Positions 7,197 through 24,885 of a stretch of DNA of 54,070 nucleotides are shown in pieces. The notes under the pieces were generated by a model, which did not search any database, was not told where the DNA came from, and saw nothing but the letters and a program-made list of their open reading frames with translations. Source of the DNA: Bacillota bacterium (GTDB lineage Bacteria > Bacillota > TC1); assembly GCA_041741995.1 (NCBI GenBank), contig JBGSJN010000004.1:1-54070 (forward strand). Reading direction: 5' to 3'. Within the stretch, counting starts at the first letter, position 1; the number at the start of each line of letters is the position of its first letter. Both the position numbers and the translations under genes were made by a program.

Positions 7197-9947
7197 GTGG
7201 AGATGAATTCAATGGATATAAATAAATATCTCATTATTGTTAAAGATGAGGATAAGACTGAAGATATACATTCATATAAATATAAAAATGGTAAATGTTA
7301 TTTAACTTACAAGGGCAGCAGAGAATATGCATACAGCGATTATAATGTTGAAATATATCAGATTATTAATTGTTTTAATGAATCTAATTACGAATCATGG
7401 ACTTCAATATCTTCTTCAGAAGAAATAGAGAAGATTCAGGAATTTGCTGAACATTACAGAGTGTGGCTGAAAAATGGATATAGGCAGTTATTTCCAAGAG
7501 GTAAATTTGATTTTAGTAACATTTGTGTTAAGAAACCAAATCATCAAAAACATGAAACAAAAGATATTATTAATTCACGTTTTTCATATTTCAAAGCATT
7601 GGCTTATATAGATCCATTGGTAAACATAAAAGGTAAAAGTATTCTAGGTAATAGTTATGATTTTATCAAGAAAGTTCATGAGGTTAGTATTTTAAAAATA
7701 TATCTACAAGGGACGCCTTTCATTAACCAATTCAAAAAGAAGTCTAAAGATAATATTTATCCGTTCAGCTTTAATTTAAGTCAAATACAAGCAATTGAAA
7801 ATGCTTTATGTAATAGAGTTAGTGTGATTGAAGGGCCGCCAGGCACAGGGAAGACACAAACTATATTAAATATAATCGCTTATTTGGTAAGTGAGGGGAA
7901 AAGTATAGCTGTAGTTTCCAATAATAATTCTGCAACAAAGAATATATTAGACAAGTTAGAGAAATATGACTTGGGATTCATAGCAGCGTATCTTGGAAAT
8001 GTTGAAAATAAGGATATTTTCATTAGTGAACAAAAAGATATTCCATCTATTGTCAAAACATGGAAATTAGAAAATATAGTAATTAAAAACATAAAAACAA
8101 AACAAAAAAGAATGAAAAATATTTTGATTAATAAACTTGAAAATTTTAACCAACTTTCAAGATATAGGCAGGAATTGGACAAATTAAAAACGGAACAGAA
8201 ACATTTTATTGATTATTACAATACAGAAGTAAAATCTGATATTAATAATAAATTTCTATCAAAATTATCTTCTAAAGACATATTAAAGTTGATAGTAAGA
8301 TGCGATCAAATAGAAGATAGACGATATAGGTTGAAGGAAAAGATTTATAACTTTTTAAGGTACCAAATATATTCGAGAAAATTATACAAAATGAATATAT
8401 ATCTGATAAGCCTTACATTTCAAAAAAGCTTTTATGAAATTAAGGCAAAAGAACTATTGTCATTAATACATAAATTAGAAAAAACATTAGTTGACTTTGA
8501 AGAACAAATGAAAGAATTTACTGATCTTAGCATGAAACTATTCCGTTCAAAAATTTCTGATAAATACAATTATGAAAATCGAAAGAAATTTGATGCAAAA
8601 ACTTTGAAGAGTGAATCAAAAGTCTTCATAAAAGAGTATCCTGTTATATTGAGTACAACACATTCTCTTCGTAATAGTTTGGATGAAAATTTTATATATG
8701 ACTATATTATTATTGATGAGGCATCACAAGTTAATTTGACAACTTCTTCATTAGCGTTTTCTTGTGCAAAAAATGCTGTAATTGTCGGAGATTCTAAACA
8801 GTTGCCTAATGTTGTAGATGCTGAAATGAAAAAACGAACTGACTCAATCTACAATCTATATACTGTTCCTGAGCAGTATTGTTATTCCAAACACAGTATC
8901 TTATCCTCTCTGAATGATTTGTTTCCTCAATTGCCGAAGGTAATGCTTAGAGAGCATTATCGTTGTAGTCCTAAGATTATCGAATTCTGTAATAAAAGAT
9001 ACTATAACGAAGAACTAATTATATTGACAAAAGAAGAAAGTGATAAAAAGAATATATATATTTATGAAACTGCTGCTGGAAATCATGCAAGAGATCGGAT
9101 GAATATACGTCAGATTGATGTTATCAGAGAAGAAATAATTCCGCAGTTGAAGCTTAATCCTCAAATTGATTCAATTGGTATTGTTACTCCTTATCGCAGA
9201 CAGACTGAAGAGTTGCAGAAGGAGTTTAAAGGCACCTTGATTGAGGCTGACACAGTTGATAGATTTCAAGGGAGAGAGAAGGATACCATAATTATTTCTA
9301 CTGTTGATAATGAAATAAGCGAATTTGCTTCAGATGACAATCGGTTAAATGTTGCGGTTTCTCGTGCTGTTAAAAATTTAGTCTTGCTTGTAAATAAAGA
9401 TATACCTAATAAGAAGTCTGGGATTCATGATTTGATGAACTACATAAGATATAACAATGGTGAGGTTTTTGAGAGTAAACTTAGATCAATTTTTGATATT
9501 CTATATAAAAGTTGTCGTGAAGAAAAATTAAAAGCCAGAAAGCGTTTTAAAAGAATATCAGAATTTGATAGTGAGAATATTTTTTTTGATCTGATATCTT
9601 CTATTTTGTTAGATGACGAGTTTAAAGGTTATGTGGTAAATCATCATGTTAGTCTAAAATCTTTGATTAAGGATTATTCTATACTGGATAATGGCAGGGA
9701 ATGGCAATATGCTATGAATGACAATACTCATGTGGATTTTGTCATTTCTGATAAATTTAGTCATCTTCCCTTATTATTGTTTGAAGTTCAAGGTTATATG
9801 TATCATAAGGAAGGTACGGATCAGCATGAAAATGACAAAATCAAGAAGGGTATTTGCGAGAAGTATAATTTAAAACTTGTTGAGGTATGGACAAATGAAC
9901 TTGTGAATCGGGAAAAGGTAATTGATTATTTACGAATGATCAACTAG
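7197..9947 (+). CDS. SF1 (Upf1/DNA2-like, COG1112-type) helicase with an unknown ~200-aa N-terminal domain and a C-terminal restriction-endonuclease-like (DUF2726/DUF559-type) module
   Basis: GPPGTGKT (7833-7856), IIIDEASQ (D507 at 8715), VIVGDSKQLPNV, REHYRCSPKIIEF, VDRFQGREKD and LNVAVSRA are present. The C-terminus reads HVDFVISDK...LLLFEVQGYMYH (9729-9800). The start may be ATG 7212 (SD GGTGGAG). Confidence 0.8.
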   Translation: MEMNSMDINKYLIIVKDEDKTEDIHSYKYKNGKCYLTYKGSREYAYSDYNVEIYQIINCFNESNYESWTSISSSEEIEKIQEFAEHYRVWLKNGYRQLFPRGKFDFSNICVKKPNHQKHETKDIINSRFSYFKALAYIDPLVNIKGKSILGNSYDFIKKVHEVSILKIYLQGTPFINQFKKKSKDNIYPFSFNLSQIQAIENALCNRVSVIEGPPGTGKTQTILNIIAYLVSEGKSIAVVSNNNSATKNILDKLEKYDLGFIAAYLGNVENKDIFISEQKDIPSIVKTWKLENIVIKNIKTKQKRMKNILINKLENFNQLSRYRQELDKLKTEQKHFIDYYNTEVKSDINNKFLSKLSSKDILKLIVRCDQIEDRRYRLKEKIYNFLRYQIYSRKLYKMNIYLISLTFQKSFYEIKAKELLSLIHKLEKTLVDFEEQMKEFTDLSMKLFRSKISDKYNYENRKKFDAKTLKSESKVFIKEYPVILSTTHSLRNSLDENFIYDYIIIDEASQVNLTTSSLAFSCAKNAVIVGDSKQLPNVVDAEMKKRTDSIYNLYTVPEQYCYSKHSILSSLNDLFPQLPKVMLREHYRCSPKIIEFCNKRYYNEELIILTKEESDKKNIYIYETAAGNHARDRMNIRQIDVIREEIIPQLKLNPQIDSIGIVTPYRRQTEELQKEFKGTLIEADTVDRFQGREKDTIIISTVDNEISEFASDDNRLNVAVSRAVKNLVLLVNKDIPNKKSGIHDLMNYIRYNNGEVFESKLRSIFDILYKSCREEKLKARKRFKRISEFDSENIFFDLISSILLDDEFKGYVVNHHVSLKSLIKDYSILDNGREWQYAMNDNTHVDFVISDKFSHLPLLLFEVQGYMYHKEGTDQHENDKIKKGICEKYNLKLVEVWTNELVNREKVIDYLRMIN

Positions 9948-10091
9948 AAAACTATTTATTACAATAATATTCAAAAACAATTTTAATAAAAGTTATTATT
10001 AAATTAAATATGTTGTAGTGAACAATAAACTTCCCAGTAAACTATAAATAATTATTATTTACAGATAATATGTAAAATAAGCGTAAAATTA

Positions 10092-10100
10092 TGATAAAAT
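10092..10100 (+). promoter_or_regulatory. Possible extended -10 (TGATAAAAT) for the two-gene helicase module
   Basis: TGnTAAAAT lies in the AT-rich 232-nt gap upstream of TTG 10180. Confidence 0.2.
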
Positions 10101-10179
10101 TTATCCAAGTTTGTTTATCAAATTTCTATTCATGAAATATATATTTTACTTTTAAAAATAGCTGAAGGGAGTATTTAAT

Positions 10180-13100
10180 TTGCGTAATATTAATGAACTT
10201 ATAGGAATAATACAGGGTATTAACTTCGATGGTGTAATCAACGAAAAGGAAACAATGCGTCTTAAATCTTGGGTTGATATAAATCGCGATCTAGCAATTG
10301 AACATCAGCATAAGGAACTAATAAAGTTAGTAGATGATATTTTAGAAGATAAAATAATAACTAATGAAGAACGTGAAATACTCATTGAATATTCTGAAAA
10401 ATTTCAAAAAGAAAATAGTGATAAAAATTCAAGACTTTATGAATTGAACGGAATTATTGAAGGGATTATTTGTGACGGTGAAATTAACGATTCAGAAATT
10501 TATCGCCTAAAGGAGTGGATGGATATCTATGGAGGATCAATAAGAAAACATAAAATTATGGAAGGATTATCTGAAATTATTGATGAGATTCTTGAAGATG
10601 GGATAATTACTTTTGATGAACAACAAAAACTTCTAAATATGCTCTCAGCAAAAATTGGTGAATCACAGATAAAAATTAAGTTAGATTATCTACGTAAACA
10701 GGTTAAAGAAAAGAAAAATATTGGGATTGATTTAATAGATATTTTGGATAATGAAAATACATTAAAAGAAATACATTTCAGGGCAGAATCGCAACTTGCA
10801 TCGGTCTTGAATTCATATAGCGGAGGATATCCAAAAGATTCTGAAATAGTTGTTATTTCTTTAGTTTTAATTGCTATGCTTGATTATAATGGAAATTATT
10901 ATGGCAACGTGGAAAAAACATATGTTGAATTGTATAATAAATTTTCTAATCAGAAAATTGAGGGAATGATAAGATCAATACTAAACAGATATAGAACAAA
11001 TGAAGAAATTGCGAGCAGAAATAGAATCATTGATGTTGTTTTATCAAATTCAATAGTACCAAGAAATTTTCTAGGTGCTTTTTTTGAATTTATATATGAT
11101 ATCTATAAATTAAACTTTGATTATGATCTACCAGAAGATCCATACGATGATTTTAAGTTTGTTTATGAGGGACTTCGTAATAAAATGTCATCAGATGGTG
11201 ATGATATTCAGCTGAATGTTACACAAAAGACCTACAAATTAATTCAGTCAACAAAAAAACTAATTGCGGAAGCAAAATATCTTGATTCAGTTATTCAATT
11301 AAGTACAATTGTAGCTAAACTAATAGATAATAGAATTTGGAATAAAAATCTAATAACTAATAATTCTTATTTAGCTAAAGGTTTTGAAAGATGGGCAAGT
11401 ACAATTGAAGCTGATGATAAAAGAGATGGCAGTTTGCGTTCCAAATCACAGATGCGTTCTCGTTGGGAACCAAAATTAATTCTTGATGGAAACCAAGTTT
11501 ATTTGTTACCACCAATTCATAAAATTAAGTCTCGATATAACTATTGGGATATTCGTGTGGTTGTAACTAATGGAGACCAAATAATCTATGAAAATAGTCA
11601 ACCTGATATACGTGAGATTATTGGGGGTTATCAGGTCAGTTTTGAAAAAATTAAATTAGTAAAGCCTCTTAGCCAATTAAATTACAGATTAATGGCTGGG
11701 GATGAAACTATATATGATAGTAAAGACAAATTATACAGAAATCTAATAGTATTCAATTCAGATAGATATGAGATTAAGAATAATACAGATTATGAGGGTA
11801 TGGTTATTTTTTGTTACTATAACAACCATGAGAAAATAACTCCATTTTATGAAAGCGAGAATTACAAACTTGCTAATCAGAATATTAAATATGAAGATGT
11901 TTATTTCATAGAAGAAACAATATTTAATTTTTCATCCCTCGAAAAACCAGGAGTTTTTGGTGAAAAATTTGAAGGTCATTACTTAGTTCGTCAGGATGAT
12001 GGTTTGAAAATTAATATATATAAAAGTTTAAGTTTTTTAGTATTCGAGAGTACTAATTGTTCTGCACAACATGATATTGAAATAAATGGTATTAAAAAAA
12101 AGCTTACAGATTTCCATAATACTGTTATTGAAAAAACAGGTGTCTTAAAATATATTGTTGATTTTGATATTAAAGATGCTGGAATATATTTTATTTCTGT
12201 TAACCAGATTATTGATGGTAAGAACAGTAGATTATTTAATTTTGAAGTAGCTTATGATCCAGGTCTAAAAATAGATGAATTAAAATTAGATGATAAGACA
12301 TACATGGTTTCAGTTAAGACAGATTTGAATGTCAATCCTTTAAACCATGATATAAATATTTATGATTTTAATGAAAATGATATAAAGTTTGAATATAAAA
12401 GAAGTGTTTATTCATATTGTATTCCATTTTCATTTGATATTTATAGAATAAATAATGGCAATTGGATACCAATGTCAGATGATATCTGGATTGATGATAT
12501 CTCAAATGATTCGGTTCTTGATATATATGGAAAAGGTATTGATGGCCTAGTGATATATTCAAATAAAGGAAACATTTTGCAAGATGAGATAAAACTGAAA
12601 AATTATGATGTTTTTTCAAAAGTAGCTATAGGCTTTATAGCATCATATAAAACATCTTATGACTATTTAATGTTAGTCTTAACTAGTAATGGCAGAGTAC
12701 ATAAAACTATATTTTGTTATAACAAATGTATACTAAATGAAGATGAGACAGAATTGTTTTTTGATTCTCACAGTTCCTCATTAGTTGTAACAGCAAAATT
12801 TCATGGCAAAGGCAATGTGTTTTTCGAAGTCACAAATATTGATGATGAAACTTTATATAAGAGTGGATTCCTACAAAATGGGGACACAGAAAAAGTATCT
12901 AATCTCTCCTCATTCCAAAAATATAATATTTGTTTTTATGAGAAACCAAAAGGTCTGTCTTTAAATAAATATAATTTTCTAAAAAAATATGAAAAAGTTT
13001 TATATGCACGAGATGAGTTCATTAACCGTTCTTTTAAAATAGATGAAGTTTATTTTAATCAAACAATTAGGGGTGATTTTGTTGAAAAATCATATAGATT

Positions 13101-13389
13101 TAATAAAATGTTTGTAAACTTTTCTGAGAAATTGTCAGATGATTTATTTCTTGGAGAGATAATAGTAAAATCTGAAAGCGGTAACTTTAAGTTGGAAAAT
13201 ATTAATCCTGTTGAAATAGAGATTTGCAGTGAAGTTATTGATAATACTATGGATTTATATATAACAAATGAAAGAGATGGATTGTTAATGGATTTTGAAC
13301 ATCATGGAATTATGAACACTCTTGATGATAAAAAGGCACCGGATATATTTTTATACACTATTGATATGAATGGAGTGAAGATATCTTGA
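10180..13389 (+). CDS. Large (1069 aa) uncharacterised protein with a duplicated TerB-like N-terminal module; candidate DruH-like partner of the downstream DUF1998 helicase
   Basis: TTG start with SD GAAGGGAG 8 nt upstream. I recognise no enzymatic motif, and the C-terminal two-thirds look beta-rich. Its stop overlaps the next gene's start (TTGA). Confidence 0.6.
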   Translation: MRNINELIGIIQGINFDGVINEKETMRLKSWVDINRDLAIEHQHKELIKLVDDILEDKIITNEEREILIEYSEKFQKENSDKNSRLYELNGIIEGIICDGEINDSEIYRLKEWMDIYGGSIRKHKIMEGLSEIIDEILEDGIITFDEQQKLLNMLSAKIGESQIKIKLDYLRKQVKEKKNIGIDLIDILDNENTLKEIHFRAESQLASVLNSYSGGYPKDSEIVVISLVLIAMLDYNGNYYGNVEKTYVELYNKFSNQKIEGMIRSILNRYRTNEEIASRNRIIDVVLSNSIVPRNFLGAFFEFIYDIYKLNFDYDLPEDPYDDFKFVYEGLRNKMSSDGDDIQLNVTQKTYKLIQSTKKLIAEAKYLDSVIQLSTIVAKLIDNRIWNKNLITNNSYLAKGFERWASTIEADDKRDGSLRSKSQMRSRWEPKLILDGNQVYLLPPIHKIKSRYNYWDIRVVVTNGDQIIYENSQPDIREIIGGYQVSFEKIKLVKPLSQLNYRLMAGDETIYDSKDKLYRNLIVFNSDRYEIKNNTDYEGMVIFCYYNNHEKITPFYESENYKLANQNIKYEDVYFIEETIFNFSSLEKPGVFGEKFEGHYLVRQDDGLKINIYKSLSFLVFESTNCSAQHDIEINGIKKKLTDFHNTVIEKTGVLKYIVDFDIKDAGIYFISVNQIIDGKNSRLFNFEVAYDPGLKIDELKLDDKTYMVSVKTDLNVNPLNHDINIYDFNENDIKFEYKRSVYSYCIPFSFDIYRINNGNWIPMSDDIWIDDISNDSVLDIYGKGIDGLVIYSNKGNILQDEIKLKNYDVFSKVAIGFIASYKTSYDYLMLVLTSNGRVHKTIFCYNKCILNEDETELFFDSHSSSLVVTAKFHGKGNVFFEVTNIDDETLYKSGFLQNGDTEKVSNLSSFQKYNICFYEKPKGLSLNKYNFLKKYEKVLYARDEFINRSFKIDEVYFNQTIRGDFVEKSYRFNKMFVNFSEKLSDDLFLGEIIVKSESGNFKLENINPVEIEICSEVIDNTMDLYITNERDGLLMDFEHHGIMNTLDDKKAPDIFLYTIDMNGVKIS
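10189..10653 (+). repeat. Intragenic tandem duplication of a ~72-aa helical module (aa 4-75 and 86-158)
   Basis: INELIGIIQGINFDGVINEKETMRLKSWVD...LVDDILEDKIITNEEREIL aligns with LYELNGIIEGIICDGEINDSEIYRLKEWMD...IIDEILEDGIITFDEQQKL. Confidence 0.8.
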
Positions 13390-16300
13390 AAAAATTGAAT
13401 CCAATAGAAAGATCACAATATATTAATAACCGCTTTAAGGAATATTTACGTTCATCCTTTCAATTTGGTAAAGGTAAACTACAGAAGTTATTTGAAAATC
13501 AATTGGATCAAGAAGAGCTTTTTAAGGGGCCTTACGTTGATCTTAATTTACCTTTTAAAAGAGGTAAGTCTTTAGATGGTTTGATGAATGAAGGTTTAGT
13601 ATGCAAATCATTTTCAAAATTAAGTGATATAAATTTTGAAAGACCATTATATTCACATCAGGAAGAATCGTTGAGAAATATTGGTAGTGGCAGAAGTGCT
13701 ATCATCACAACAGGTACTGGTTCAGGTAAAACTGAAAGTTTCTTATACCCAATATTAAATGATCTTTTGTCAGAAATTGAAAAGGGGAATAAAGATGTTG
13801 GTATAAGAGCAATTTTCCTTTATCCGATGAACGCATTGGTAAACGATCAAATGGACAGATTGCGAAAAATCCTATTAGATTGTCCAGAAATAAAATATGG
13901 TTTTTTTACAGGAGATACAAAAGAAAGTGTACCAGCCAATTACAGAAAAAAATATGGCGAAGATAATGGATTAGTAATTCCAGACAATGAATTAGTATCA
14001 AGGGAGGAGATTAGAGAAAATCCTCCTCATCTTTTGTTTACAAATTATTCAATGCTGGAATACTTATTAATTAGACCTAATGATTATGCGATTTTTGTTC
14101 CTGCTCGTCTTAAAAACTGGAAATATGTCGTTCTTGATGAGGCTCATACATATAGTGGTGCAAAGGGAATTGAGTTATCTATGCTTATGAGGCGATTGAC
14201 CGGACTTGCTCCAGAAAAACCAAGCTTTATTTTAACTAGTGCAACTTTAGGAGAAAAAGGCAAATCTGAAAATGAGATTATTGAATTTGCAAAAAATCTT
14301 ACTTCCGCTAGTTTTGATGTACAGGATATTATTTTCTCGAAAAGAATTCCTTTAAAAAAAGATGATTTGGATTACAGAATTACTGGTAGTGATTATATAA
14401 GAATTAAAGAAAATATAAAGGATTATGGGGTAGTTAAGTCTATTGGTGATAGTTACAAGAAAATAGAATTTGAAGATTTTAAAGAATATTTATTTGAATT
14501 ACTATCTAGTGATAATAATGTCTATGATATCTACAGTATATTGAAAGATGGATGTAAGACAATCGGTACAATACTTGATGGCTTGAATTCGTATGTTTCT
14601 GATTTAGAGTTAATTGCCCTTATTGATTTAATTAATCTGGCAGAGAAGAATAATATTGGTTTATTCGATTTGAAATATCATTCTTTTGTTCGTCCGTTGT
14701 CAGGTGCATATATTAATTTAAGTGAAGATCCTAAAATAATGCTAACAAAAACTAATTATATCGATGGGCTTAAAGCCTTTGAAATAGGAAACTGTAGATT
14801 TTGCGGCTCCCCATATATTGTAGGTAAAATCCAACACAATGATACGGATCAATTAGACTATTTGTTTCAGAATCAAGAGGTCGATATATATGAAAATTAT
14901 GGAAATAATGAATATATAAAACTTGATTTTTTTCTAATGGAAAATGCTGTTAATGAAGATGAGTATGATAAATCAAATCTTGAGGAGTATGTTATTTGTG
15001 TTAAGTGTGGTTCATTACACCATTCAAAAAATTTAAATTCTAGAAAATGTACGTGTGACACATCCTTTCATAAAATAATTTATAGGGTAGGTCAATCAAA
15101 TACTGATGATAAAGAGAATTTGAATAATATTACTCAATGTCCATGTTGTGGAGATAAAGGTAGATCAGGGGTAGTAAAAACAGTTAACTTAGGAAAAGAT
15201 GAAGGTACAGCAATAGTAGCACAGACATTGTTTGAAGCTATTGGTGATGATTCTGAAAAAACAGAAAAAACAGGTAAATTATCTTTAAAATTAAAAGATA
15301 AGAATGAAAGTATAAAATTACAGGATAAAGTAAAACAATTTCTAGCTTTCTCAGATAGCAGGCAACAGGCAAGTTTTGCTGCTGTTTTTTTGGATTCAAA
15401 TCATGTTAGAATGCTTCGCAAAAGATTGATCTGGAATGTTATAGAAGACCAGAATTATCGAGATATAGCTGTAGATGAGTTAGCATCATATTTATCTTCA
15501 ACCATAAAAACAAAAGATCTATTTTCAAATGATTTGACAGCCCATAAAAATGCCTGGGTAACAATATTAATAGATTTATTAAGAGTAGATGGTGCGTATG
15601 ATGGAGAAGGATTAGGATTGTTCTATTTTGCTATCGACCTAAGGGATATATTGGATAGAATTGATGATGAAGATATCCATGAAACATTTGGTAGATATAA
15701 TATTGATAAAAATGACTTAGCAACAATAATACAAGTTGCATTCAATATTTTCAAAACTACTCCTGCAGTAAGTTATATAAAATCTACACTAACTCCTGAT
15801 GAGAAAAAGGAGTACATGGAATATAGAAGATTTGATAATTATGTAATGTACAATTGCCAAAAGTCTATAAAAGGAATAAGAAGTCTGCTACCTATTAAGG
15901 GCGGTGAAAATAAAATTATTAGATATTTAAAAAAGGTTTGTAAATGTAGCAATGAAGAAGCTGCTGAAATTTTGGATATTATATTTAATAGCTTGGCCGT
16001 TGGTATATCGGGAATAGAGGGAACCGAAAGGTTAATGATAAAACATGATAAAGAAGAGGCATACCAGATTGATAGCAGTAAATACATTTTAAAGAATTAT
16101 AAAAATTCGAATTATTATCAGTGTTCTAAATGTGGAAAGCTAACACCTCATAATGTTCATGATGTGTGCACACAGGACAAGTGTGACGGAATGCTTGTTG
16201 AGATAGATCCAGATCAGGTTTTAGGTCATAATTACTACAGAAGTCAGTATAAAACAAAAAAGATAGAACGGATTGTAATTAAGGAACATACAGCACAACT

Positions 16301-18110
16301 CAACCGTTCAACTGCAAAAGAATATCAAATGGACTTTAAAAGTAAAAAAATTAATATTCTTAGTAGTTCTACGACCTTTGAAATGGGAATTGATATAGGT
16401 GATCTTGAAAATGTATATATGAGAAATATTCCGCCATCACCTGCAAATTATGTTCAAAGAGCTGGACGAGCAGGGAGAAGCAAGGATACTGCAGCATATA
16501 TATTGACATATTGCAGTAATAGTTCTCATGATTATACATATTTTAGCGATCCTGAAAAAATGATAAAGGGAGTAATTAGACCTCCATATTTTAATGTATT
16601 TAATGATAAAATAGTAGTTCGACATTTGATGGCTACATGTCTTGGTTCTTTCTTCAGAACTTATCCAGTATATTTTAATACAATAGATGGCTTAGTATTT
16701 AAAGATGGATATAAGGTTTTAAAAGATTATATAAATAGTCATCCAGATGATTTAAATAAATATATTAATGAAAAGATTATACCTGAGGAAATATATTTAG
16801 GGTATCATAATTTCAAATGGTTTGATGAAATGAACGGTGATGATGAAAAGATGAGCTATTTTATTGATACTATTCAACAAATGGCCACTGAATACGAAGA
16901 AGCTAAAAATAATGCAATATCTGAAGAGAATTATTCTGAAGCTGATTATTATAAAAAGCAGATTGAAAATTTACATAAATTAGGTGTTATTGAATCGCTT
17001 TCAGATTATAGCATAATTCCAAAGTATGGTTTTCCAGTAAATGTTGTCGATCTTCAAATATATCAGGATGGTAAAATTGTTAAAGTTTATAAAAATGGTA
17101 GAGTAGACGAAAAATATAATTTGAGTCGAGATCTTAAGATCGCAATTTCAGAGTATGCGCCAGATTCTGAAGTAATAACAGATGGCAATAAGTATACCTC
17201 TAAGTATATTTCATTACCAAAGGCTACTGAATTTCCTAAAAGATATTTTTCAACATGCACGAACTGCAAGAAGGTTAATGTCTATATAAGTAGTAGTGTA
17301 ACTATTAATTGTAAATATTGTGGTGAAAAATTAGATACCAATAATGCTGAGTACTATATTGAACCGAAAAATGGATTCAAGACTGGTTTAACAAAAGAAA
17401 GTTCTCGAATGAAACCAAAAAAGTCTTACTCCGGTGAAGTCTCATATCTTGGTGGGGGAATCAAGGATGAGGATTGTATGGATATAGGAAAAACTATCAA
17501 GTTAGAGAGCAGCAGGAATGATAATCTTTTGATCTTAAATAAGTCAAATTTCCACATGTGCCCTATTTGTGGCTATAGTGATGTAGCTAAAGGGAAAAAT
17601 ATCTACCCTCAAATTTTTAAAAAGCATAAGAACTTTAGGGCATATGATTGTCCAAATGAAACTCTAGATAAATTGAGATTAGGTCATCAGTTTCAAACAG
17701 ATGTAGTAAGGTTTACTATTCCTTTGCTAGGTTCAGGTGAAAAGACCAGTTATTCAATTGCTTTGTCTTTCTTGTATGCATTTTTGGAGGGTGTAAGTAA
17801 TGCACTTGATATAGAAAGAAATGATATTAATGGTATTCTTGAACTGAATTTAGAAAAAAATAGTTATGATATCTTATTGTATGACAATGTACCTGGTGGA
17901 GCAGGGCATGTTAAAAGTCTGATGAATTCTAAAGCTGTAGTTGATTCACTCAGATGGTCATTGAAAAAGGTTTCTCAAAAATGTTGTGATGAAAATACTT
18001 CATGTTATAACTGTTTAAGAAACTATAACAATCAGTCTCATCATAGTCGCTTACAAAGAATATATGCAAAAAACGTCATAGAACAATTATTAACTGATAT
18101 TGCTGATTGA
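13386..18110 (+). CDS. Giant DEAD/DEAH-box SF2 helicase with inserted zinc ribbons and a C-terminal DUF1998 (MZB) Cys-cluster domain; DruE-like
   Basis: GTGSGKT (13713-13733), DEAH (14136-14147), SAT and QRAGRAGR (16455-16478) are present. The C-terminus carries GGAGH and CC..(5)..CxxC (17982-18014). The TTG start overlaps the upstream stop. Confidence 0.85.
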   Translation: MKKLNPIERSQYINNRFKEYLRSSFQFGKGKLQKLFENQLDQEELFKGPYVDLNLPFKRGKSLDGLMNEGLVCKSFSKLSDINFERPLYSHQEESLRNIGSGRSAIITTGTGSGKTESFLYPILNDLLSEIEKGNKDVGIRAIFLYPMNALVNDQMDRLRKILLDCPEIKYGFFTGDTKESVPANYRKKYGEDNGLVIPDNELVSREEIRENPPHLLFTNYSMLEYLLIRPNDYAIFVPARLKNWKYVVLDEAHTYSGAKGIELSMLMRRLTGLAPEKPSFILTSATLGEKGKSENEIIEFAKNLTSASFDVQDIIFSKRIPLKKDDLDYRITGSDYIRIKENIKDYGVVKSIGDSYKKIEFEDFKEYLFELLSSDNNVYDIYSILKDGCKTIGTILDGLNSYVSDLELIALIDLINLAEKNNIGLFDLKYHSFVRPLSGAYINLSEDPKIMLTKTNYIDGLKAFEIGNCRFCGSPYIVGKIQHNDTDQLDYLFQNQEVDIYENYGNNEYIKLDFFLMENAVNEDEYDKSNLEEYVICVKCGSLHHSKNLNSRKCTCDTSFHKIIYRVGQSNTDDKENLNNITQCPCCGDKGRSGVVKTVNLGKDEGTAIVAQTLFEAIGDDSEKTEKTGKLSLKLKDKNESIKLQDKVKQFLAFSDSRQQASFAAVFLDSNHVRMLRKRLIWNVIEDQNYRDIAVDELASYLSSTIKTKDLFSNDLTAHKNAWVTILIDLLRVDGAYDGEGLGLFYFAIDLRDILDRIDDEDIHETFGRYNIDKNDLATIIQVAFNIFKTTPAVSYIKSTLTPDEKKEYMEYRRFDNYVMYNCQKSIKGIRSLLPIKGGENKIIRYLKKVCKCSNEEAAEILDIIFNSLAVGISGIEGTERLMIKHDKEEAYQIDSSKYILKNYKNSNYYQCSKCGKLTPHNVHDVCTQDKCDGMLVEIDPDQVLGHNYYRSQYKTKKIERIVIKEHTAQLNRSTAKEYQMDFKSKKINILSSSTTFEMGIDIGDLENVYMRNIPPSPANYVQRAGRAGRSKDTAAYILTYCSNSSHDYTYFSDPEKMIKGVIRPPYFNVFNDKIVVRHLMATCLGSFFRTYPVYFNTIDGLVFKDGYKVLKDYINSHPDDLNKYINEKIIPEEIYLGYHNFKWFDEMNGDDEKMSYFIDTIQQMATEYEEAKNNAISEENYSEADYYKKQIENLHKLGVIESLSDYSIIPKYGFPVNVVDLQIYQDGKIVKVYKNGRVDEKYNLSRDLKIAISEYAPDSEVITDGNKYTSKYISLPKATEFPKRYFSTCTNCKKVNVYISSSVTINCKYCGEKLDTNNAEYYIEPKNGFKTGLTKESSRMKPKKSYSGEVSYLGGGIKDEDCMDIGKTIKLESSRNDNLLILNKSNFHMCPICGYSDVAKGKNIYPQIFKKHKNFRAYDCPNETLDKLRLGHQFQTDVVRFTIPLLGSGEKTSYSIALSFLYAFLEGVSNALDIERNDINGILELNLEKNSYDILLYDNVPGGAGHVKSLMNSKAVVDSLRWSLKKVSQKCCDENTSCYNCLRNYNNQSHHSRLQRIYAKNVIEQLLTDIAD

Positions 18111-18150
18111 TATTAAATGTAAAAAATACTATATCGGTAATCTGAGAAAA

Positions 18151-18159
18151 TGATATAAT
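18151..18159 (+). promoter_or_regulatory. Extended -10 box TGATATAAT upstream of hsdM
   Basis: TGnTATAAT lies 47 nt upstream of ATG 18206. Confidence 0.3.
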
Positions 18160-18205
18160 TAAAATAATGTGTTAATAAAACGTAATATTGAGGAGTAAAT
18201 GAATA

Positions 18206-19924
18206 ATGGGATTAAGTTCAAACATACAAGAAAAAGCAAATCTAATCTGGGCGATAGCTGATAAATTGACTGGAGTATACAAACCACACGAGTATGGTGA
18301 AGTTATACTACCACTAACAGTAATAAGAAGGTTTGACTGTATACTAGAAGAGACAAAAGACAAGGTGCTCGCAAAAAACGAAAAAATAGGATCAGTAGCA
18401 ATGAAAGATACCTTTTTATGCAAAGAATCAGGTTATGCATTCTATAACACAAGTAAATATGATTTCAGAAAACTATTAGATGCACCAGACAATATAGAAG
18501 CTAACTTTAGATCATATCTTAATTCATTTTCAGAAAATGTAAGGAATATTATTGAGAAGTTCGATTTTGATAAGCAAATAACAAGACTAGCAAATAATAA
18601 TCTTCTATATATTGTTATACAAGAGTTTGTTACTCCAAAGGCTGATCTTCATCCAGATAAGATATCTAATCTTGAGATGGGATATATCTTTGAGGAGATT
18701 ATTCGTAAGTTTTCCGAGGCTCATAATGAAGATGCTGGACAACACTATACTCCTAGAGAAGTAATTGAACTAATGGTTAATATTTTATTTTATGAGGATA
18801 GTGAGCTGTTATCCACTAATATTGCAAAGACTATATATGATCCCGCTTGTGGAACAGGGGGCATGCTTTCTGTTGCTTCTGATTATTTGACTCGTATGAA
18901 TAGTGGTGCAGAGTTAATATCTTTTGGTCAAGAAATAAATGAGCAGACGTATGCTATTTGTAAGGCTGATATGTTAATTAAGTGTGCAGCAGCAGATAAT
19001 ATTAAGAATGGTAATACTCTTTCTGATGATAAGTTTCCAGGTGAGCATTTTGACTATATATTGTCTAATCCTCCATTTGGAAGAGAATGGAAGAATGATA
19101 AACAAAAAGTTGAAGCGGAAGCTAAGTTAGGCTTTGGTGGTAGATTTGGTGCTGGTCTTCCTGCTATTGGCGATGGTCAGTTATTGTTCATGCAAACTGC
19201 TTTAGCAAAAATGAAACCTCAAGGTAGTAGGATAGCTATTATTCATAATGGTTCTCCTTTGTTTACAGGTGATGCTGGTAGTGGTCCTTCTGAGATTAGA
19301 AGGTATATTCTAGAGAATGATTTATTGGAGGCTATTGTAGCTTTACCAAATGATATATTCTATAATACTGGGATTGCTACATATATATGGGTTCTTTCAA
19401 ATAAGAAGAAGAATCATAGAAAAGGTAAAGTTCAACTTATTAATGCTAATGAGTTATATGAGAAGAGGAGAAAGTCTTTGGGTAGTAAGCGTAATGATAT
19501 TCCTGAAAAGTATATTGAGTTGATTACTAATGTTTATGCTGATTTCAAGGAGTCTGATATTAGTAAGATTTTTGATAATGAGGATTTCGGTTATTCTAAG
19601 ATAGTGGTCGAAAGACCTTTGTTGGATGATAAGGGTAATAAGGTTCTTAAGAATGGTAAGCCTGTTGCTGATTCTTCATTGCGTGATTCTGAGAATGTTC
19701 CTTTGAAGGAGGATATTAGGGAGTATTTTAATAGGGAAGTTATTCCTTTTGCTCCTGATGCTTGGATTGATAAGAGTAAGACTAAGGTTGGCTATGAGAT
19801 TCCTTTTACTAGGTATTTTTATAGGTATGAGGCTCCTAGACCTTCTAGGGAAATAATGGCTGAGATTCTTGAGTTAGAGAAAGAATTGAATGGTGTATTA
19901 TCTGAGGTGTTTGATGTTAGATGA
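18206..19924 (+). CDS. hsdM: Type I restriction-modification system, DNA methyltransferase subunit M (N6-adenine)
   Basis: Motif I DPACGTGGML and motif IV NPPFG are present. It is 572 aa, has SD AGGAG 10 nt upstream, and is followed by hsdS and hsdR. Confidence 0.9.
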   Translation: MGLSSNIQEKANLIWAIADKLTGVYKPHEYGEVILPLTVIRRFDCILEETKDKVLAKNEKIGSVAMKDTFLCKESGYAFYNTSKYDFRKLLDAPDNIEANFRSYLNSFSENVRNIIEKFDFDKQITRLANNNLLYIVIQEFVTPKADLHPDKISNLEMGYIFEEIIRKFSEAHNEDAGQHYTPREVIELMVNILFYEDSELLSTNIAKTIYDPACGTGGMLSVASDYLTRMNSGAELISFGQEINEQTYAICKADMLIKCAAADNIKNGNTLSDDKFPGEHFDYILSNPPFGREWKNDKQKVEAEAKLGFGGRFGAGLPAIGDGQLLFMQTALAKMKPQGSRIAIIHNGSPLFTGDAGSGPSEIRRYILENDLLEAIVALPNDIFYNTGIATYIWVLSNKKKNHRKGKVQLINANELYEKRRKSLGSKRNDIPEKYIELITNVYADFKESDISKIFDNEDFGYSKIVVERPLLDDKGNKVLKNGKPVADSSLRDSENVPLKEDIREYFNREVIPFAPDAWIDKSKTKVGYEIPFTRYFYRYEAPRPSREIMAEILELEKELNGVLSEVFDVR

Positions 19925-20582
19925 TCAGAAAGCTAAATTCTATGTACGATTATTTACAAAAGAAAATCATTTTAAAGACTTTTTAAATAACTATTTATAT
20001 ATGAATGAAGCAATATTTTTTTCTAAATATGACGATGAATTAATTGGTGATATAACAGAAGGAAAAATATTCAATGGTTGTGATGAAGCAAAATTAATTA
20101 TTGGGAAGGACAATCCAATAGTAATTGATAAAGTTGAAATGCCATTATACAACTGGTACATATATTGTCTATTTGAATTATTTGATAATGAAGTTAATCT
20201 TAAAATGGATAGTTTAGAAATAACAAGTATAAAATTTCAAAATTTTATTAATCAATATTTAATAAGTAATAAACAAGTATTTATTGTTCTAATTGATTCA
20301 GAAAAATTTGATCAAGTTATTAAAAAGTATCTTGTAGGCAAAGAATATTTTTATGACGATATAACATTCTCAGACTTAACCCCTTCTGAAAGATTTATGG
20401 CTTACATGACGAATGGAGTAAAATCAATATTATATAATAAAAAATTAAAATATGCGAAGTATTTTTCTGAAAAGCGATTATCAGTTTTTCATGATGAAAA
20501 AAAAGATAAAATCATATTGAAAATAGAAGGTATAAAAGATTCTATTATTAATATATATACTAAAAAGGCTGGTGAAATTTAA
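19914..20582 (+). CDS. Uncharacterised protein embedded between hsdM and hsdS (ORF track 19890-20582; ATG 19914 preferred, 222 aa)
   Basis: SD GAGGTG (19904-19909) precedes ATG 19914. It overlaps the hsdM stop, and its TAA overlaps the hsdS ATG (TAATG at 20580-20584). It is very AT-rich and I recognise no motif. Confidence 0.6.
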   Translation: MLDDQKAKFYVRLFTKENHFKDFLNNYLYMNEAIFFSKYDDELIGDITEGKIFNGCDEAKLIIGKDNPIVIDKVEMPLYNWYIYCLFELFDNEVNLKMDSLEITSIKFQNFINQYLISNKQVFIVLIDSEKFDQVIKKYLVGKEYFYDDITFSDLTPSERFMAYMTNGVKSILYNKKLKYAKYFSEKRLSVFHDEKKDKIILKIEGIKDSIINIYTKKAGEI

Positions 20583-21865
20583 TGAGCATTTACGAATATA
20601 TGGATAGTGGAATTGAGTGGATAGGTGTAATTCCAAAAAGTTGGAAATTAAAAAAAATAGGTAACATATATATTGAAAGAAATGAAAAGGTTAGCGATAA
20701 AGATTATGCGCCATTATCTGTTACAAAAAAAGGTATTGTTTCACAATTAGATTCAGCTGCAAAAAGTAATGATGGAGATAACAGAAAATTAGTTAAGTTA
20801 AATGATTTTGTAATTAATAGTCGTTCTGATAGAAGAGGTTCATGTGGAATTTCTTCATTAAATGGTTCTGTATCTTTAATTAATACAGTGTTGAAACCTA
20901 GAGAAGATATCAATAATTTGTTTTATAATTATGTTTTCAAATCTGAAGGATTTGCAGATGAATTTTACAGGTGGGGAAATGGTATTGTAAATGATTTATG
21001 GTCAACTAAATATTCCAATATGAAAAAAATCTATATACCTTATCCTGATATAAAAATACAAGAGCGGATAGCCAATTATTTGAATTCACGTTGTACTTTA
21101 ATTGATCAAACTATAGAAAAACAAAAACTAATAATTGAAAAACTTAAAGCTTATAAGCAATCGGTAATTACAGAAGCAGTTACTAAAGGGTTAAATCCGA
21201 ATGTTCCAATGAAAGATAGTGGAATAGAGGTAATTGGTGAAATACCGTCAGGATTCAAAGTAACTAAAATTAAAAAAATTTGTACAATATATGGAAGAAT
21301 AGGATTTAGAGGATATACGCAAGAAGATTTAGTTAGCGAAGGTGAGGGCGCTATTACACTAAGCCCATCTAACATCGATAATATGAAAATTACATATAAT
21401 AAATGTGCATATTTAACATGGGGGAAATATTTCGAAAGTCCAGAAATTCAAATAAATGAAGGTGATATATTATTTGTAAAGACAGGATCCTCATATGGTA
21501 AAGCTGCTATAGTTATTAATCTCCCTATGGAAGCTACAATTAACCCACAGTTAATTGTATTTAAAGATTTTATAATTAATCAAAAGTACTTTATGTATTA
21601 TTTAAATTCATCAATATGTCATTATCAAGTAGAACAATCAATCGTTGGTGGTACTATACCAACACTATCACAAAGTAAAATAAGTAACTTCACAGTTATT
21701 GTACCTAAAGAAAAAGAACTTAATAACATAGTGGAATATTTAGATAGAAAATGTAGTGGAATAGAACAAAACATAAACACGAATAATAGTATAATAGAAA
21801 AATTAGAAAAATATAAAAAATCCCTAATATACGAATGCGTAACAGGAAAACGAGAGGTGAAATAA
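20582..21865 (+). CDS. hsdS: Type I R-M specificity subunit S
   Basis: Two target-recognition halves are each followed by a conserved helical spacer (...LIDQTIEKQKLIIEKLKAYKQSVITEAVTKGL... and ...GIEQNINTNNSIIEKLEKYKKSLIYECVTGK...). Confidence 0.85.
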   Translation: MSIYEYMDSGIEWIGVIPKSWKLKKIGNIYIERNEKVSDKDYAPLSVTKKGIVSQLDSAAKSNDGDNRKLVKLNDFVINSRSDRRGSCGISSLNGSVSLINTVLKPREDINNLFYNYVFKSEGFADEFYRWGNGIVNDLWSTKYSNMKKIYIPYPDIKIQERIANYLNSRCTLIDQTIEKQKLIIEKLKAYKQSVITEAVTKGLNPNVPMKDSGIEVIGEIPSGFKVTKIKKICTIYGRIGFRGYTQEDLVSEGEGAITLSPSNIDNMKITYNKCAYLTWGKYFESPEIQINEGDILFVKTGSSYGKAAIVINLPMEATINPQLIVFKDFIINQKYFMYYLNSSICHYQVEQSIVGGTIPTLSQSKISNFTVIVPKEKELNNIVEYLDRKCSGIEQNINTNNSIIEKLEKYKKSLIYECVTGKREVK

Positions 21866-24800
21866 TGTCTGATGAACTACTAAAAGAACTCAACTTTGAG
21901 CTGGCGATTGAACAATATCTGATAGATGAAGCAGGATACCAAAAAGGTGATCCAACAGCATTTGACAGAGCACTAGCAATAGACAAAGAAACCCTATTGA
22001 CTTTTATTAAGAATACACAACCAAAAAAATGGGAAAAGTATGAGGGAATCTATGGTAGTGAAGCAAGTAGTTCATTAATCAAAAGACTAGACAAAGAAAT
22101 AACCTCAAGAGGACTACTAAGCGTACTAAGAAAAGGTATTGACGACAGAGGGATAAAATTCTATATCGCATACTTCAAACCAGAAACATCAATGAACCAA
22201 GATGCCTTGAATAAGTACGAACAAAACATACTACACTGTACAAGACAACTACACTACTCCATACTAAATGAAAACAGTATAGATATGGTGCTGTTTTTAA
22301 ATGGAATACCAGTAGTCAGCATGGAACTAAAAAGTCAGTTCACTGGCCAGACCGCCATGAATGCTATAAACCAATACAAGTTCGATAGAGCAAGTAAGGA
22401 TAAAATATTCGAATTCAGAAATAGAGTATTAGTTCACTTTGCAGTAGACCTATTCGAAGTATTCATGACAACACAACTAGCAGGAGAAAAAACATACTTT
22501 CTACCCTTCAATAAAGGATCAGGTGGATCCGGGAATGTTGGAGGCAAGGGAAATCCTATGGTAGAGAACGACTATCAAAGCTCATACCTATGGAAAGAAG
22601 TGCTAGTTAAAGATAGCTTGATGGAAATCTTGCAGAAATATATGCACCTGCAAAAAGAAGAAAGAATAAACGACAAAGGTGATAAATACCAGAAAGAAAC
22701 AATGATATTCCCAAGATATCATCAATTCGATGTAGTCACAAAACTATTATCTGATGTTAAGGAAAATGGTTCAGGAAAGAACTACCTAATCCAACACAGT
22801 GCAGGAAGTGGAAAATCAAACTCCATAGCCTGGCTGGCACATCGTTTATCAGGATTACATAGTGAAGATGATGAGAAGATCTTTCAATCAATAATTGTTG
22901 TAACAGATAGAAAAGTTCTAGATAGTCAATTACAACAAACTATATACCAGTTTGACCATGTCCTAGGTGTTGTTGAATGTATAGATAACAAGAAACACTC
23001 AACAGATTTAAGAGATGCAATAAATGCAGGCAAGCAGATTATAATTACTACCTTACAAAAATTCCCAATCATTTTTAAAGAAGTAACAAGTGAAAAAAGA
23101 AAGTTTGCCATAATTGTCGATGAGGCACACTCCAGTCAGACAGGAGAAGCTGCCAAGAAACTTAAAATTGCACTTGGTGATACTGAAGAAATATTAGAAA
23201 AATTTAGAGCAGAAGAAGAAGATGAAGAAAAGAATAATAAGGATTATGAAGACAAAATGATTGAAGCAATGGCATCTCATGGAAAACTTGATAATCTATC
23301 ATTTTTTGCCTTTACTGCCACACCAAAAGAAAAGACACTTCAGATGTTTGGAGAGAAATTACCAAGTGAAATTATTGGTGAAAAACCAAAGTACAGGGCA
23401 TTTCATATCTATTCCATGAGACAGGCAATAGAAGAAGGCTTTATACTTGATGTTTTGAAGAACTATACTACCTACAAGATGTTCTATAAGATAATAAAGA
23501 AAGCCAATGATGATCCTGAAGTTGAAGCTGGAAGAGCAGCAAAGGAAATAGTTAAGTATGAAACTTTGCATCCCCACAATATAGCTCAAAAGACAGCTAT
23601 TATGATTGAACACTTTAGAAATACTACCAAGAACAAGATAAATGGACGTGCTAAAGCAATGGTGGTAACAGGATCAAGATTACATGCTGTTCGCTATTTA
23701 TTAGAGTTTAGACGATATATAAAAGAAGCTGGTTACACCGATATGGATATATTGGTGGCATTTTCTGGTGTTGTTAAGGATGATAATGCTGAATATAGCG
23801 AGGAAAAATTAAATACAACTAAGAATGGTCAAATGATTAAAGAACATCAGTTGAAGGAATATTTCCATACTGATAGCTATAATGTTTTAATAGTTGCGGA
23901 AAAATATCAGACAGGCTTTGATGAACCATTATTACATACAATGTTCGTTGATAAGAAATTATCTGGAGTCAAGGCTGTTCAAACCCTATCTAGATTGAAC
24001 AGAACCATGAAAGGTAAGACTGATACCTTCGTTCTTGATTTTGTGAATACTGCAGATGAAATAAAGGCTTCATTTGAACCATATTATGAAGCTTCTATTC
24101 TTGAGGGTGAAACAGATCCTAATGTTATTTATGATTTGAAGATTAAGCTTGATGATTATCAGGTTTATCAACCAAACGAGATTGAACGTTTTGATGAAGC
24201 TTTATATACAAAGAAAGATAATGATCTACAAGCTATTTTAGTTGCTTGTATTAAACCTGCCAGGGATAGATTTATGGCTATTGAAAAAGTTGAACAGAAA
24301 GATGAGTTTAGGACTATACTTGCCAGGTTTATTCGTATATATTCTTTTGTTACTCAAATAAGTAGAATGTTTGATTTGGAGATGCAGAAATTTTATGAAT
24401 ATTGCAGATTTTTATTAACCTGTATACCAAAGGAAGGTAATGAGAAGATTGATTTATCTGATAATTTGTTATTAGAGTATTATAAGCTACAGGAATCCTT
24501 TAATGGTGATATTGTCTTAGAAGGTGGAGTTGAACTTGAACCAATAACTGGTGAAGCTGGAGCTAAGGAAAAAATTAAGGATCAACTGTCTCTTATTATT
24601 GAAAAGATGAATGAAAGATTTGGAACTCAGTTTACTCAACAGGATAAGGTCCTTGATCAGATGAAGGCTGATTTTGCTGGTGATGAGAAGCTTGTTAATG
24701 CTGCTCAGTCTAGTGATAAGTCTTTGTTTAATCATTTATATAAGCAGAGGTTTAAGGATGTTGCTGTGAATAGGTATGAGGAGAATGATGGTTTCTTTAT

Positions 24801-24885
24801 GGATTTATTTAATGATGAGAATAAGCTTAAGTTTGTGATGAATATGATGGCTGAGGTTGTTTATAATGATTTGAGGAATAGATAA
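21865..24885 (+). CDS. hsdR: Type I R-M restriction endonuclease/translocase subunit R (ORF track start 21835; ATG 21865 preferred)
   Basis: TAATG overlaps the hsdS stop and SD GAGAGGTG lies upstream. The N-terminal nuclease-like segment is IDMVLFLNGIPVVSMELK. Helicase motifs HSAGSGKS, IIVDEAHSSQ and QTLSRLNR are present. Confidence 0.9.
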   Translation: MSDELLKELNFELAIEQYLIDEAGYQKGDPTAFDRALAIDKETLLTFIKNTQPKKWEKYEGIYGSEASSSLIKRLDKEITSRGLLSVLRKGIDDRGIKFYIAYFKPETSMNQDALNKYEQNILHCTRQLHYSILNENSIDMVLFLNGIPVVSMELKSQFTGQTAMNAINQYKFDRASKDKIFEFRNRVLVHFAVDLFEVFMTTQLAGEKTYFLPFNKGSGGSGNVGGKGNPMVENDYQSSYLWKEVLVKDSLMEILQKYMHLQKEERINDKGDKYQKETMIFPRYHQFDVVTKLLSDVKENGSGKNYLIQHSAGSGKSNSIAWLAHRLSGLHSEDDEKIFQSIIVVTDRKVLDSQLQQTIYQFDHVLGVVECIDNKKHSTDLRDAINAGKQIIITTLQKFPIIFKEVTSEKRKFAIIVDEAHSSQTGEAAKKLKIALGDTEEILEKFRAEEEDEEKNNKDYEDKMIEAMASHGKLDNLSFFAFTATPKEKTLQMFGEKLPSEIIGEKPKYRAFHIYSMRQAIEEGFILDVLKNYTTYKMFYKIIKKANDDPEVEAGRAAKEIVKYETLHPHNIAQKTAIMIEHFRNTTKNKINGRAKAMVVTGSRLHAVRYLLEFRRYIKEAGYTDMDILVAFSGVVKDDNAEYSEEKLNTTKNGQMIKEHQLKEYFHTDSYNVLIVAEKYQTGFDEPLLHTMFVDKKLSGVKAVQTLSRLNRTMKGKTDTFVLDFVNTADEIKASFEPYYEASILEGETDPNVIYDLKIKLDDYQVYQPNEIERFDEALYTKKDNDLQAILVACIKPARDRFMAIEKVEQKDEFRTILARFIRIYSFVTQISRMFDLEMQKFYEYCRFLLTCIPKEGNEKIDLSDNLLLEYYKLQESFNGDIVLEGGVELEPITGEAGAKEKIKDQLSLIIEKMNERFGTQFTQQDKVLDQMKADFAGDEKLVNAAQSSDKSLFNHLYKQRFKDVAVNRYEENDGFFMDLFNDENKLKFVMNMMAEVVYNDLRNR

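Follow-up and report, generated by a model that had tools for sequence, protein, structure and literature searches.

A probable Druantia-type two-gene defence locus in a Bacillota genome, with a partner protein that is not detectably DruH

Few defence systems are as widespread as Druantia. Does a pair of very large, overlapping genes in a Bacillota genome belong to it, and if so, what is the protein that accompanies the helicase? The pair occupies positions 10180-18110 of a 54,070-nt stretch of DNA (positions 1 to 54,070 of contig JBGSJN010000004.1, NCBI GenBank assembly GCA_041741995.1, Bacillota bacterium, GTDB lineage TC1), referred to below as the window, and encodes a 1069-aa protein, here called X, followed by a 1574-aa helicase. 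A first-pass annotation made from the letters of the sequence had proposed either a Druantia type III-like locus or a new system built around a DUF1998 helicase, and had called the mechanism of Druantia III essentially unknown. The latter remark is out of date: the mechanism was worked out in papers of 2026, with conflicting accounts of the role of the partner protein DruH and of how the phospholipase D (PLD) nuclease of the helicase DruE is licensed.

Judged from the comparisons described here, the pair appears to be a real, unannotated Druantia-III-like system whose partner family is either new or diverged beyond recognition. We consider it likely that the locus is self-contained and horizontally mobile, a two-gene anti-phage system of the Druantia type with an undescribed partner family. 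The two genes and the ribosome-binding site that precedes them are as follows.

10164..10171, + strand: Shine-Dalgarno sequence GAAGGGAG, 8 nt 5' of the TTG of X (read from the sequence)
10180..13389, + strand: gene X, 1069 aa, TTG start (open reading frame (ORF) list)
13386..18110, + strand: DruE-type helicase gene, 1574 aa, TTG start (ORF list)

The stop codon of X and the start codon of the helicase gene share the letters TTGA at 13386-13389, a 4-nt overlap (ATATC-TTGA-AAAAAT, 13381-13395), and an AT-rich intergenic gap of 232 nt precedes the Shine-Dalgarno sequence of X. The first pass had reported this overlap of two large ORFs, with an AT-rich gap and Shine-Dalgarno sequence of their own, and its coordinates proved exact. 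Both TTG starts are backed by homologues, in which Met1 aligns at the same point. A scan of positions 9800-18400 for promoters and terminators was uninformative, with 63 promoter-like sites against 59.6 expected and zero terminator-like sites.

The helicase and its partner in sequence comparisons

Profile searches bear out the earlier description of the 1574-aa protein as a DUF1998 DEAD/DEAH helicase of the Druantia kind. Among the PADLOC models it scores highest with DruE1 (614.6 bits, E=1.4e-184), followed by DruE3 (535 bits, E=1.3e-160), DruE2 (407 bits, E=4.9e-122) and DruE4 (347 bits, E=6.2e-104). Other PADLOC helicase families match far more weakly (DpdJ 1e-28, SngC 2e-28, BrxH 3e-25, DrmA 1e-15). 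The best match among PDB sequences is 9tu7, a 2108-aa DEAD/DEAH helicase chain (E=1.7e-79), which we take to be the DruE cryo-electron microscopy entry. Bacillus subtilis MrfA/YprA (6znp) aligns over RecA1 only, with E=2.3e-19 as against 1.7e-79 for 9tu7, and a clustering with housekeeping helicases of the MrfA/Lhr type, which the first pass had named as the outcome that would speak against its proposal, was not seen. The domains and motifs of the helicase are listed below; the positions given earlier for GTGSGKT, DEAH, QRAGRAGR and the CC...CxxC cluster were all correct.

13653..14255, + strand: RecA1 domain (DEAD/DEAH), residues 90-290 (Pfam PF00270, E=5.9e-24)
13713-13733, + strand: Walker A motif GTGSGKT, within RecA1
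14136-14147, + strand: DEAH motif, within RecA1
14238-14246, + strand: SAT motif, within RecA1
16260..16481, + strand: RecA2 domain (Helicase_C), residues 959-1032 (Pfam PF00271, E=3e-12)
16455-16478, + strand: motif VI, QRAGRAGR, within RecA2
17775..18017, + strand: MZB/DUF1998 zinc-binding domain, residues 1464-1544 (Pfam PF09369, E=6.4e-10)
17982-18014, + strand: CC...CxxC cluster, within the MZB domain

The protein ends 31 residues beyond the last MZB Cys. Its alignments to the DruE profiles stop at position 1677 of 2055 (DruE3) and at 1677 of 1776 (DruE1), and E. coli druE extends ~387 codons past the last residue that aligns to the window helicase. In E. coli DruE, this extra region holds two PLD nuclease domains (Bell et al., Wu et al.), and the window helicase, by alignment, is without this nuclease tail of ~390 aa. 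The missing nuclease does not exclude DruE membership, because nuclease-less DruE are common in the 'Type III-like' branch, where the helicases are most often without a nuclease domain (Bell et al.); that branch may include the helicases described here. DruE of Mycobacterium smegmatis (1667 aa) defends, and its authors see no canonical nuclease domain in either M. smegmatis DruE or DruH (PMC13316683). On these comparisons the 1574-aa protein is best placed in the DruE clade of the YprA/MrfA family of superfamily 2 (SF2) helicases, with intact ATPase motifs and no subtype assigned.

The partner behaves differently in the same libraries. X has no match in Pfam, NCBIfam or PADLOC, save that its first 200 aa weakly resemble the PADLOC candidate PDC-S48 (E=9.5e-5). 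The PADLOC DruH3 models, run against the whole of X and against three segments of it, returned nothing at E<=10, and the PADLOC DruH models returned nothing at E<=1 from nine distant X relatives. The NCBIfam model YjiT_fam (NF038336) was matched neither by X nor by three relatives, among them a copy carried by a phage, and precomputed annotation places no Pfam domain on any of the 120 listed X homologues. PADLOC models of DruA-D, DruM, DruF, DruG and DruL were likewise unmatched by X and by the neighbouring ORFs. BLASTP gave no alignment between X and E. coli YjiT. When the 48-sequence X profile (alignment A4, Neff 6) was compared by hhalign with a 24-sequence DruH profile (A3), the probability was 0.19% (E=0.31); alignment A1 against the single YjiT sequence gave 0.11%. 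A PDB sequence search with the X family profile revealed no DruH relationship.

Genuine DruH is readily recognised by these models. The positive control was full-length E. coli DruH (YjiT, L006:10001-13288, 1096 aa; L numbers denote the loci compared), which matched 12 PADLOC DruH3 models (best 1828 bits, E-values 0 to 1e-3) and YjiT_fam with 1258 bits. The Pfam library that was scanned holds neither PF27205 nor PF27201, and YjiT itself went unmatched there; precomputed Pfam annotation was used for the DruH test. In that annotation PF27205 and PF27201 occur on nearly all listed YjiT relatives, the exceptions being a few truncated entries. With all sequence tests negative and the positive controls working, the possibility raised in the first pass, that the 1069-aa protein is no DruH and would be a new partner for a DUF1998 helicase, is supported. 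The comparison also touched on E. coli K-12 MG1655, where a decayed Druantia III lies between yjiS and mcrC (L005:6415-10856). There yjiT is cut short (505 aa, against 1096 aa in ECONIH1) and yjiV has become a pseudogene; ECONIH1 for its part has a frameshifted druE.

Conservation and predicted architecture of the pair

Homologues of X form 376 clusters at 90% identity in a word-indexed database, and an exhaustive search yielded 1544 representatives at 50% identity (E<=1e-3), 265 of them with E<=1e-30. Species-level genomes contributed 36 X loci, mostly from Lachnospiraceae and other Clostridia, with some from Erysipelotrichaceae and Bacilli and one from a Negativicute. A DruE homologue, 56-69% identical, lies directly 3' of X in 30 of the 31 loci with enough downstream sequence, and the same 4-nt X/DruE overlap was present in the loci checked. 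What the first pass had treated as a two-gene module is thus conserved as a unit across genomes, partner included. The exception (L038; Succiniclasticum metagenome-assembled genome, CADCHY010000012.1, 10001-23187) carries an X homologue whose C-terminus is joined to a GajB-like UvrD helicase (1716 aa), with DrmA (1060 aa), DrmB (630 aa), a gene with a NERD domain and a superfamily 1 (SF1) helicase (NERD-SF1, 574 aa) and a C5 DNA methylase downstream. By gene content this is a DISARM-like locus, in which X again goes with an MZB helicase, here divided between two polypeptides. Of the more distant members, one (L043/L044) has the reversed order, DruE then X, with the genes still overlapping, and in another (L045) the DruE encoded just after X shows 37% identity.

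The pair is also found on mobile elements. Ruminococcus phage NatCom_28274 (PV036439.1, L046:8857-16280), a complete 59-kb genome of Ca. Heliusvirales, carries it between endolysin and replication genes; the partner protein there (916 aa) has no N-terminal repeat, the DruE is 1558 aa long, and the two genes are annotated as hypothetical. A scan of viral contigs with alignment A1 added one IMG/VR contig with the pair. On a Clostridium butyricum megaplasmid the pair stands alone among metabolic genes, labelled 'hypothetical protein' and 'DEAD/DEAH box helicase' in RefSeq. Some copies are decaying: L019 (194+1405 aa) and L040 (435+1122 aa) have a split or frameshifted DruE, and in L026 an internal deletion has taken away the 3' end of the partner gene along with the initial ~1090 codons of DruE. 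X is coupled translationally to DruE and co-inherited with it across Bacillota, two phages and one megaplasmid. Literature searches found no paper naming RefSeq or GenBank accessions of the pair.

The structure of X was predicted with AlphaFold2 (AF2) from a multiple sequence alignment of 27 sequences, giving a mean pLDDT (predicted local distance difference test) of 76 and a pTM (predicted template modelling score) of 0.44. Secondary structure assigned with DSSP shows helices up to residue 410; residues 431-1069 are all-beta, with the strand pattern of tandem sandwiches, and the chain ends in beta strands. The model and the family alignments divide X as follows.

10189..10635, + strand: tandem duplicated helical module, ~80 aa each, residues 4-69 and 86-152
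10705..11469, + strand: conserved alpha-helical core, residues ~176-430 (models and A4 alignment)
11470..13386, + strand: all-beta array resembling immunoglobulin (Ig) and FN3 domains, residues 431-1069 (AF2 and Foldseek)

The first pass had read the N-terminus as a TerB-like duplication. The duplication is real, residues 4-69 and 86-152 being 46% identical (BLASTP, E=5e-14); the TerB label did not stand, since Pfam searches at E<=10 with residues 1-175 and with each repeat gave noise only, and the DG-x5-E-x3-L pattern in this region recalls TerB by eye only. The duplicated module is optional: family members of ~900-930 aa, including the phage copy, start near residue 160, and some members bear different N-terminal extensions. 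In the 48-sequence A4 alignment, the residues conserved throughout the superfamily include five of the helical core (R265, R282, D307, K350, D383) and four of the beta array (R520, E531, D693, D1033). When residues 1-430 were modelled on their own with AF2, the model was poor (pLDDT 63, falling below 50 past residue 290), and its best Foldseek match in the PDB had E=0.45.

For the whole model, Foldseek matches in the PDB were multi-Ig/FN3 ectodomains only (PTP-sigma, gp130, leptin receptor, NCAM2, contactin; E down to 8e-6), and those in BFVD were phage proteins with FN3 and Big domains. From the 640-aa length of the array and its strand pattern, we estimate that X holds about six Ig-like domains. 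No DruH chain appeared among the matches listed from the PDB copy. The structural matches reported for DruH are of the same class of Ig-array proteins (Loeff et al.), and the layout of X, as modelled, is DruH-like, a helical N-terminal part being followed by an Ig-like array.

The two genes diverge at different rates. Across 30 loci, mean identity to the window copy is 46% for X and 63% for DruE. Within X, pairwise identity is 62-66% in the helical part, 60% and 54% in the first and last beta domains, and 42-46% in the middle beta domains (536-948). DruH is also more divergent than DruE and shows positive selection in its Ig-like domains, from which it was argued to be the sensor (Wu et al.). 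Because X evolves faster than DruE and is most variable in its middle Ig domains, in parallel with DruH, X may be sensor-like as well.

Among the other Druantia types, I (DruABCDE), II (DruMFGE) and IV (DruE, DruF and DruL; PMC8565338) have DruE in common with the window pair, whose helicase scores highest on DruE1, and differ in that none of DruA-D, DruM, DruF, DruG or DruL is found at the pair. The DruE1 alignment ends ~100 profile positions before the C-terminus of the profile, and the missing positions may correspond to the inactivated Vsr domain that Bell et al. describe at the C-terminus of DruE in types I and II. DISARM, with its YprA-like helicase split into DrmA and DrmB, has a helicase core of the same superfamily and an MZB domain, and it is directly upstream of DrmA/DrmB, with a C5 methylase nearby, that the X member of L038 stands. 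The window helicase, unlike that of DISARM, is a single DruE-type polypeptide; there is no DrmC, DrmD or methylase in the module, and the type I restriction-modification (R-M) genes of the window form a separate operon.

Alternative readings of the locus

Several points weigh against the reading of the locus as a two-gene Druantia-type system with a new partner family. We infer a role in defence from the homology of one component and from genomic context. X fails all sequence-based DruH tests and, to the extent that profiles can tell, is not recognisable as a DruH. Foldseek, run on the low-quality model of residues 1-430, revealed no nuclease fold in its helical part, and with a pTM of 0.44 and Foldseek TM-scores of ~0.1 the structural matches hold at the domain level only. 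The X model is without the DruH-type C-terminal helical domain, which in DruH forms a pocket for single-stranded DNA (ssDNA) and ATP together with Ig5 (Hu et al.). Published roles of DruH also disagree, it being a 3'-5' exonuclease (Loeff et al.), an ATP-inhibited ssDNA binder (Hu et al.) or a sensor of phage proteins (Wu et al.). With DruH homology and the C-terminal domain both missing, the DruH mechanism may therefore not transfer to X.

X might instead be a true, extremely diverged DruH, so that the locus would be a Druantia III (for example the nuclease-less III-B or III-like kind of Bell et al.) and would work as published for DruH and DruE. Druantia III of E. coli (YjiT-YjiV), Pseudomonas aeruginosa and M. 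smegmatis resembles the pair in having a ~1100-aa partner upstream of, and overlapping, a giant DEAH/MZB DruE, and in occurring both within defence islands and on mobile DNA. The partners are of one size class (1069 aa for X, 1096-1119 aa for DruH), combine a helical N-terminal part with an Ig-like array, and evolve faster than their helicases. The III-like branch of Bell et al., with its mostly nuclease-less helicases, would accommodate the window DruE, which resembles the 1667-aa M. smegmatis DruE in being without a canonical nuclease domain. DruH families are moreover very diverse, the 12 PADLOC models ranging from E 0 to 1e-3 on E. coli DruH alone. Even so, the PADLOC DruH models miss X and its nine distant relatives at thresholds as loose as E<=1 to 10, YjiT_fam and PF27205/PF27201 recognise genuine DruH and no X member tested, and the comparison of 48 with 24 sequences left a probability of 0.19%. 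X differs from DruH, too, in the missing C-terminal helical domain and the optional duplicated N-terminal module, and the Ig-like fold is too common to prove ancestry. The window DruE is without the two PLD domains of type III-A DruE, and the known ranges differ, X-DruE occurring in Bacillota, Negativicutes and phages and Druantia III in Proteobacteria and Actinobacteria. Descent of X from DruH is thus possible, if on the doubtful side. The type III-like gene content noted in the first pass stands, with a DruE identified by hidden Markov model (HMM) and a ~1100-aa overlapping partner upstream. A third proposal, a housekeeping DNA-repair module related to MrfA/YprA, which acts in mitomycin repair, would take the pair out of immunity altogether. 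DruE does belong to the YprA/MrfA family and has the SF2 core and MZB zinc domain in common with B. subtilis MrfA. The latter is ~750 aa long and works with the exonuclease MrfB; the window helicase is twice as long, reaches 1e-184 on DruE models and aligns with MrfA over RecA1 only (E=2e-19), and the pair has no MrfB-like exonuclease partner. Patchy distribution, variable neighbourhoods, pseudogenised copies (L019, L026, L040), carriage by two phages and a megaplasmid, and a place within a defence island in the window likewise speak for immunity, and we regard a repair module as very improbable.

The remaining question is whether the functional unit has a third gene, for which the candidate in the window is the gene upstream of X.

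7197..9947, + strand: SF1 helicase (AAA_11/AAA_12) with a C-terminal DUF2726 nuclease-like domain, 916 aa (Pfam)

If the unit comprised three genes, this SF1-DUF2726 protein would supply the nuclease that DruE is missing, much as a NERD-SF1 protein may do for longer forms of DruE. A gene of the same family lies directly upstream of the pair in Aminipila (L001), and in L038 a member of the X family occurs together with SF1 helicases and a NERD gene. The related helicases fall into a short class of 1555-1590 aa, which includes that of the window, and a long class of 1701-1720 aa with an extra tail of ~140 aa, which has no Pfam match and no alignment to the DruE1 C-terminus. Directly downstream of the long class, in 11 of 12 loci, is a gene of ~570 aa that combines a NERD nuclease domain with an SF1 (UvrD_C_2) helicase domain (L002 (13207-20072), L004, L009, L011, L020, L023, L024, L027, L031, L037 and L041); L012 keeps a remnant. 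A dedicated NERD-SF1 gene thus follows the longer DruE in about a third of the related loci. For the short class, clustering of all flanking ORFs found no recurrent third gene. The SF1-DUF2726 gene adjoins the pair in only 2 of ~38 loci, the window and L001, and is absent beside the phage, megaplasmid and most chromosomal copies with a short DruE; the suggestion that a flanking helicase-nuclease is a regular part of the module was therefore not upheld. Between window and L001 it has 38% identity, as against 55% for X and 68% for DruE, and it is divided from the pair by the 232-nt gap and a separate Shine-Dalgarno sequence. Taken alone, the protein resembles single-gene or other defence helicases (MkoA, MkoC, Hhe, ProA), with partial PADLOC matches to MkoA, MkoC, PDC-S37 and Hhe and a partial NCBIfam match to ProA, all below curated cut-offs. 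It is probably independent of the pair and may be an unclassified single-gene defence helicase-nuclease; a three-gene unit in the window seems unlikely. Because no neighbour recurs with the short class, and the SF1-DUF2726 gene recurs only in L001, we take the window module to be the two-gene form.

Proposed mechanism and genomic setting

How might a two-gene system of this kind act? By analogy with published Druantia III, X would serve as sensor or adaptor. Its conserved helical core and the beta domains at either end of the array would dock on the helicase and on DNA, and the fast-evolving middle Ig-like domains would recognise a phage cue, either a phage protein or an exposed ssDNA or forked replication intermediate. 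DruE, once licensed, would engage ssDNA and, powered by ATP, translocate 3'-to-5' to unwind the DNA of the phage. Because the window DruE is without a nuclease domain, three alternative killing routes are proposed. Replication or circularisation intermediates might be disrupted without degradation, as reported for M. smegmatis DruE (PMC13316683); a cryptic nuclease might reside in the helical core of X, as Loeff et al. claim for DruH; or the unwound DNA might be handed to other nucleases, of which the NERD-SF1 protein of the long variants would be a dedicated version.

A bolder proposal, which we hold tentatively, is that X founds a family unrelated to DruH, a convergent sensor with a helical head and an Ig array for MZB helicases (DruE, and DrmAB in L038). 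The pair would then represent a new class of Druantia that defends without a dedicated nuclease, either by recruiting host nucleases or by having the helicase take apart replication or recombination intermediates of the phage. If X is indeed such a convergent family, setting it beside DruH-DruE would tell those activities of DruH (exonuclease, ATP-gated ssDNA binding, phage-protein sensing) that Druantia-type immunity requires from those confined to one lineage. The X-DruE family amounts to a natural experiment, in which the helicase core is kept, the nuclease tail dropped and DruH replaced by a protein of similar layout, and the contrast should help to settle what DruH and the nuclease of DruE each do, on which published accounts differ.

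In Bacillota of the gut and rumen the family is plentiful (the 1544 clusters at 50% identity). PADLOC v2.0.0 recognises the helicase only, and a model for the partner is absent from PADLOC v2.0.0, NCBIfam and Pfam. Because the partner is unmodelled and the pair is annotated as a hypothetical protein and a helicase, censuses that draw on PADLOC, NCBIfam, Pfam or RefSeq probably miss part of the Druantia-like immunity of Bacillota. An HMM built for X would close this gap in annotation.

The surroundings of the pair in the window fit the defence-island context proposed in the first pass. Pfam confirms the flanks named there, the helicase-nuclease gene on one side and a type I R-M operon on the other, and an AbiE-type pair (347-2349) adds to them.

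18206..24885, + strand: type I R-M operon with hsdM, a 230-aa ORF, hsdS and hsdR (Pfam)

The operon starts 95 nt past DruE, with zero terminator-like sites between. Its 230-aa ORF (19890-20582), unannotated and without family assignment, lies between hsdM and hsdS and overlaps both, and the 598-aa ORF that follows hsdR (24912-26708) has a weak AAA_22 match only. In the AbiE-type pair, another defence or toxin-antitoxin element of the island, a gene for a DUF6577 protein (347-1135) overlaps an AbiEii nucleotidyltransferase toxin gene (1126-2349). A DUF2130 protein (5486-6679, E=1e-89) is encoded between a minus-strand ORF and the SF1-DUF2726 gene. Positions 30899-34657 encode a 1252-aa protein with 13 RCC1 repeats and cadherin-like, ricin B-lectin and Listeria-Bacteroides repeat domains; it is unrelated to the pair and is likely to be secreted or displayed on the cell surface.

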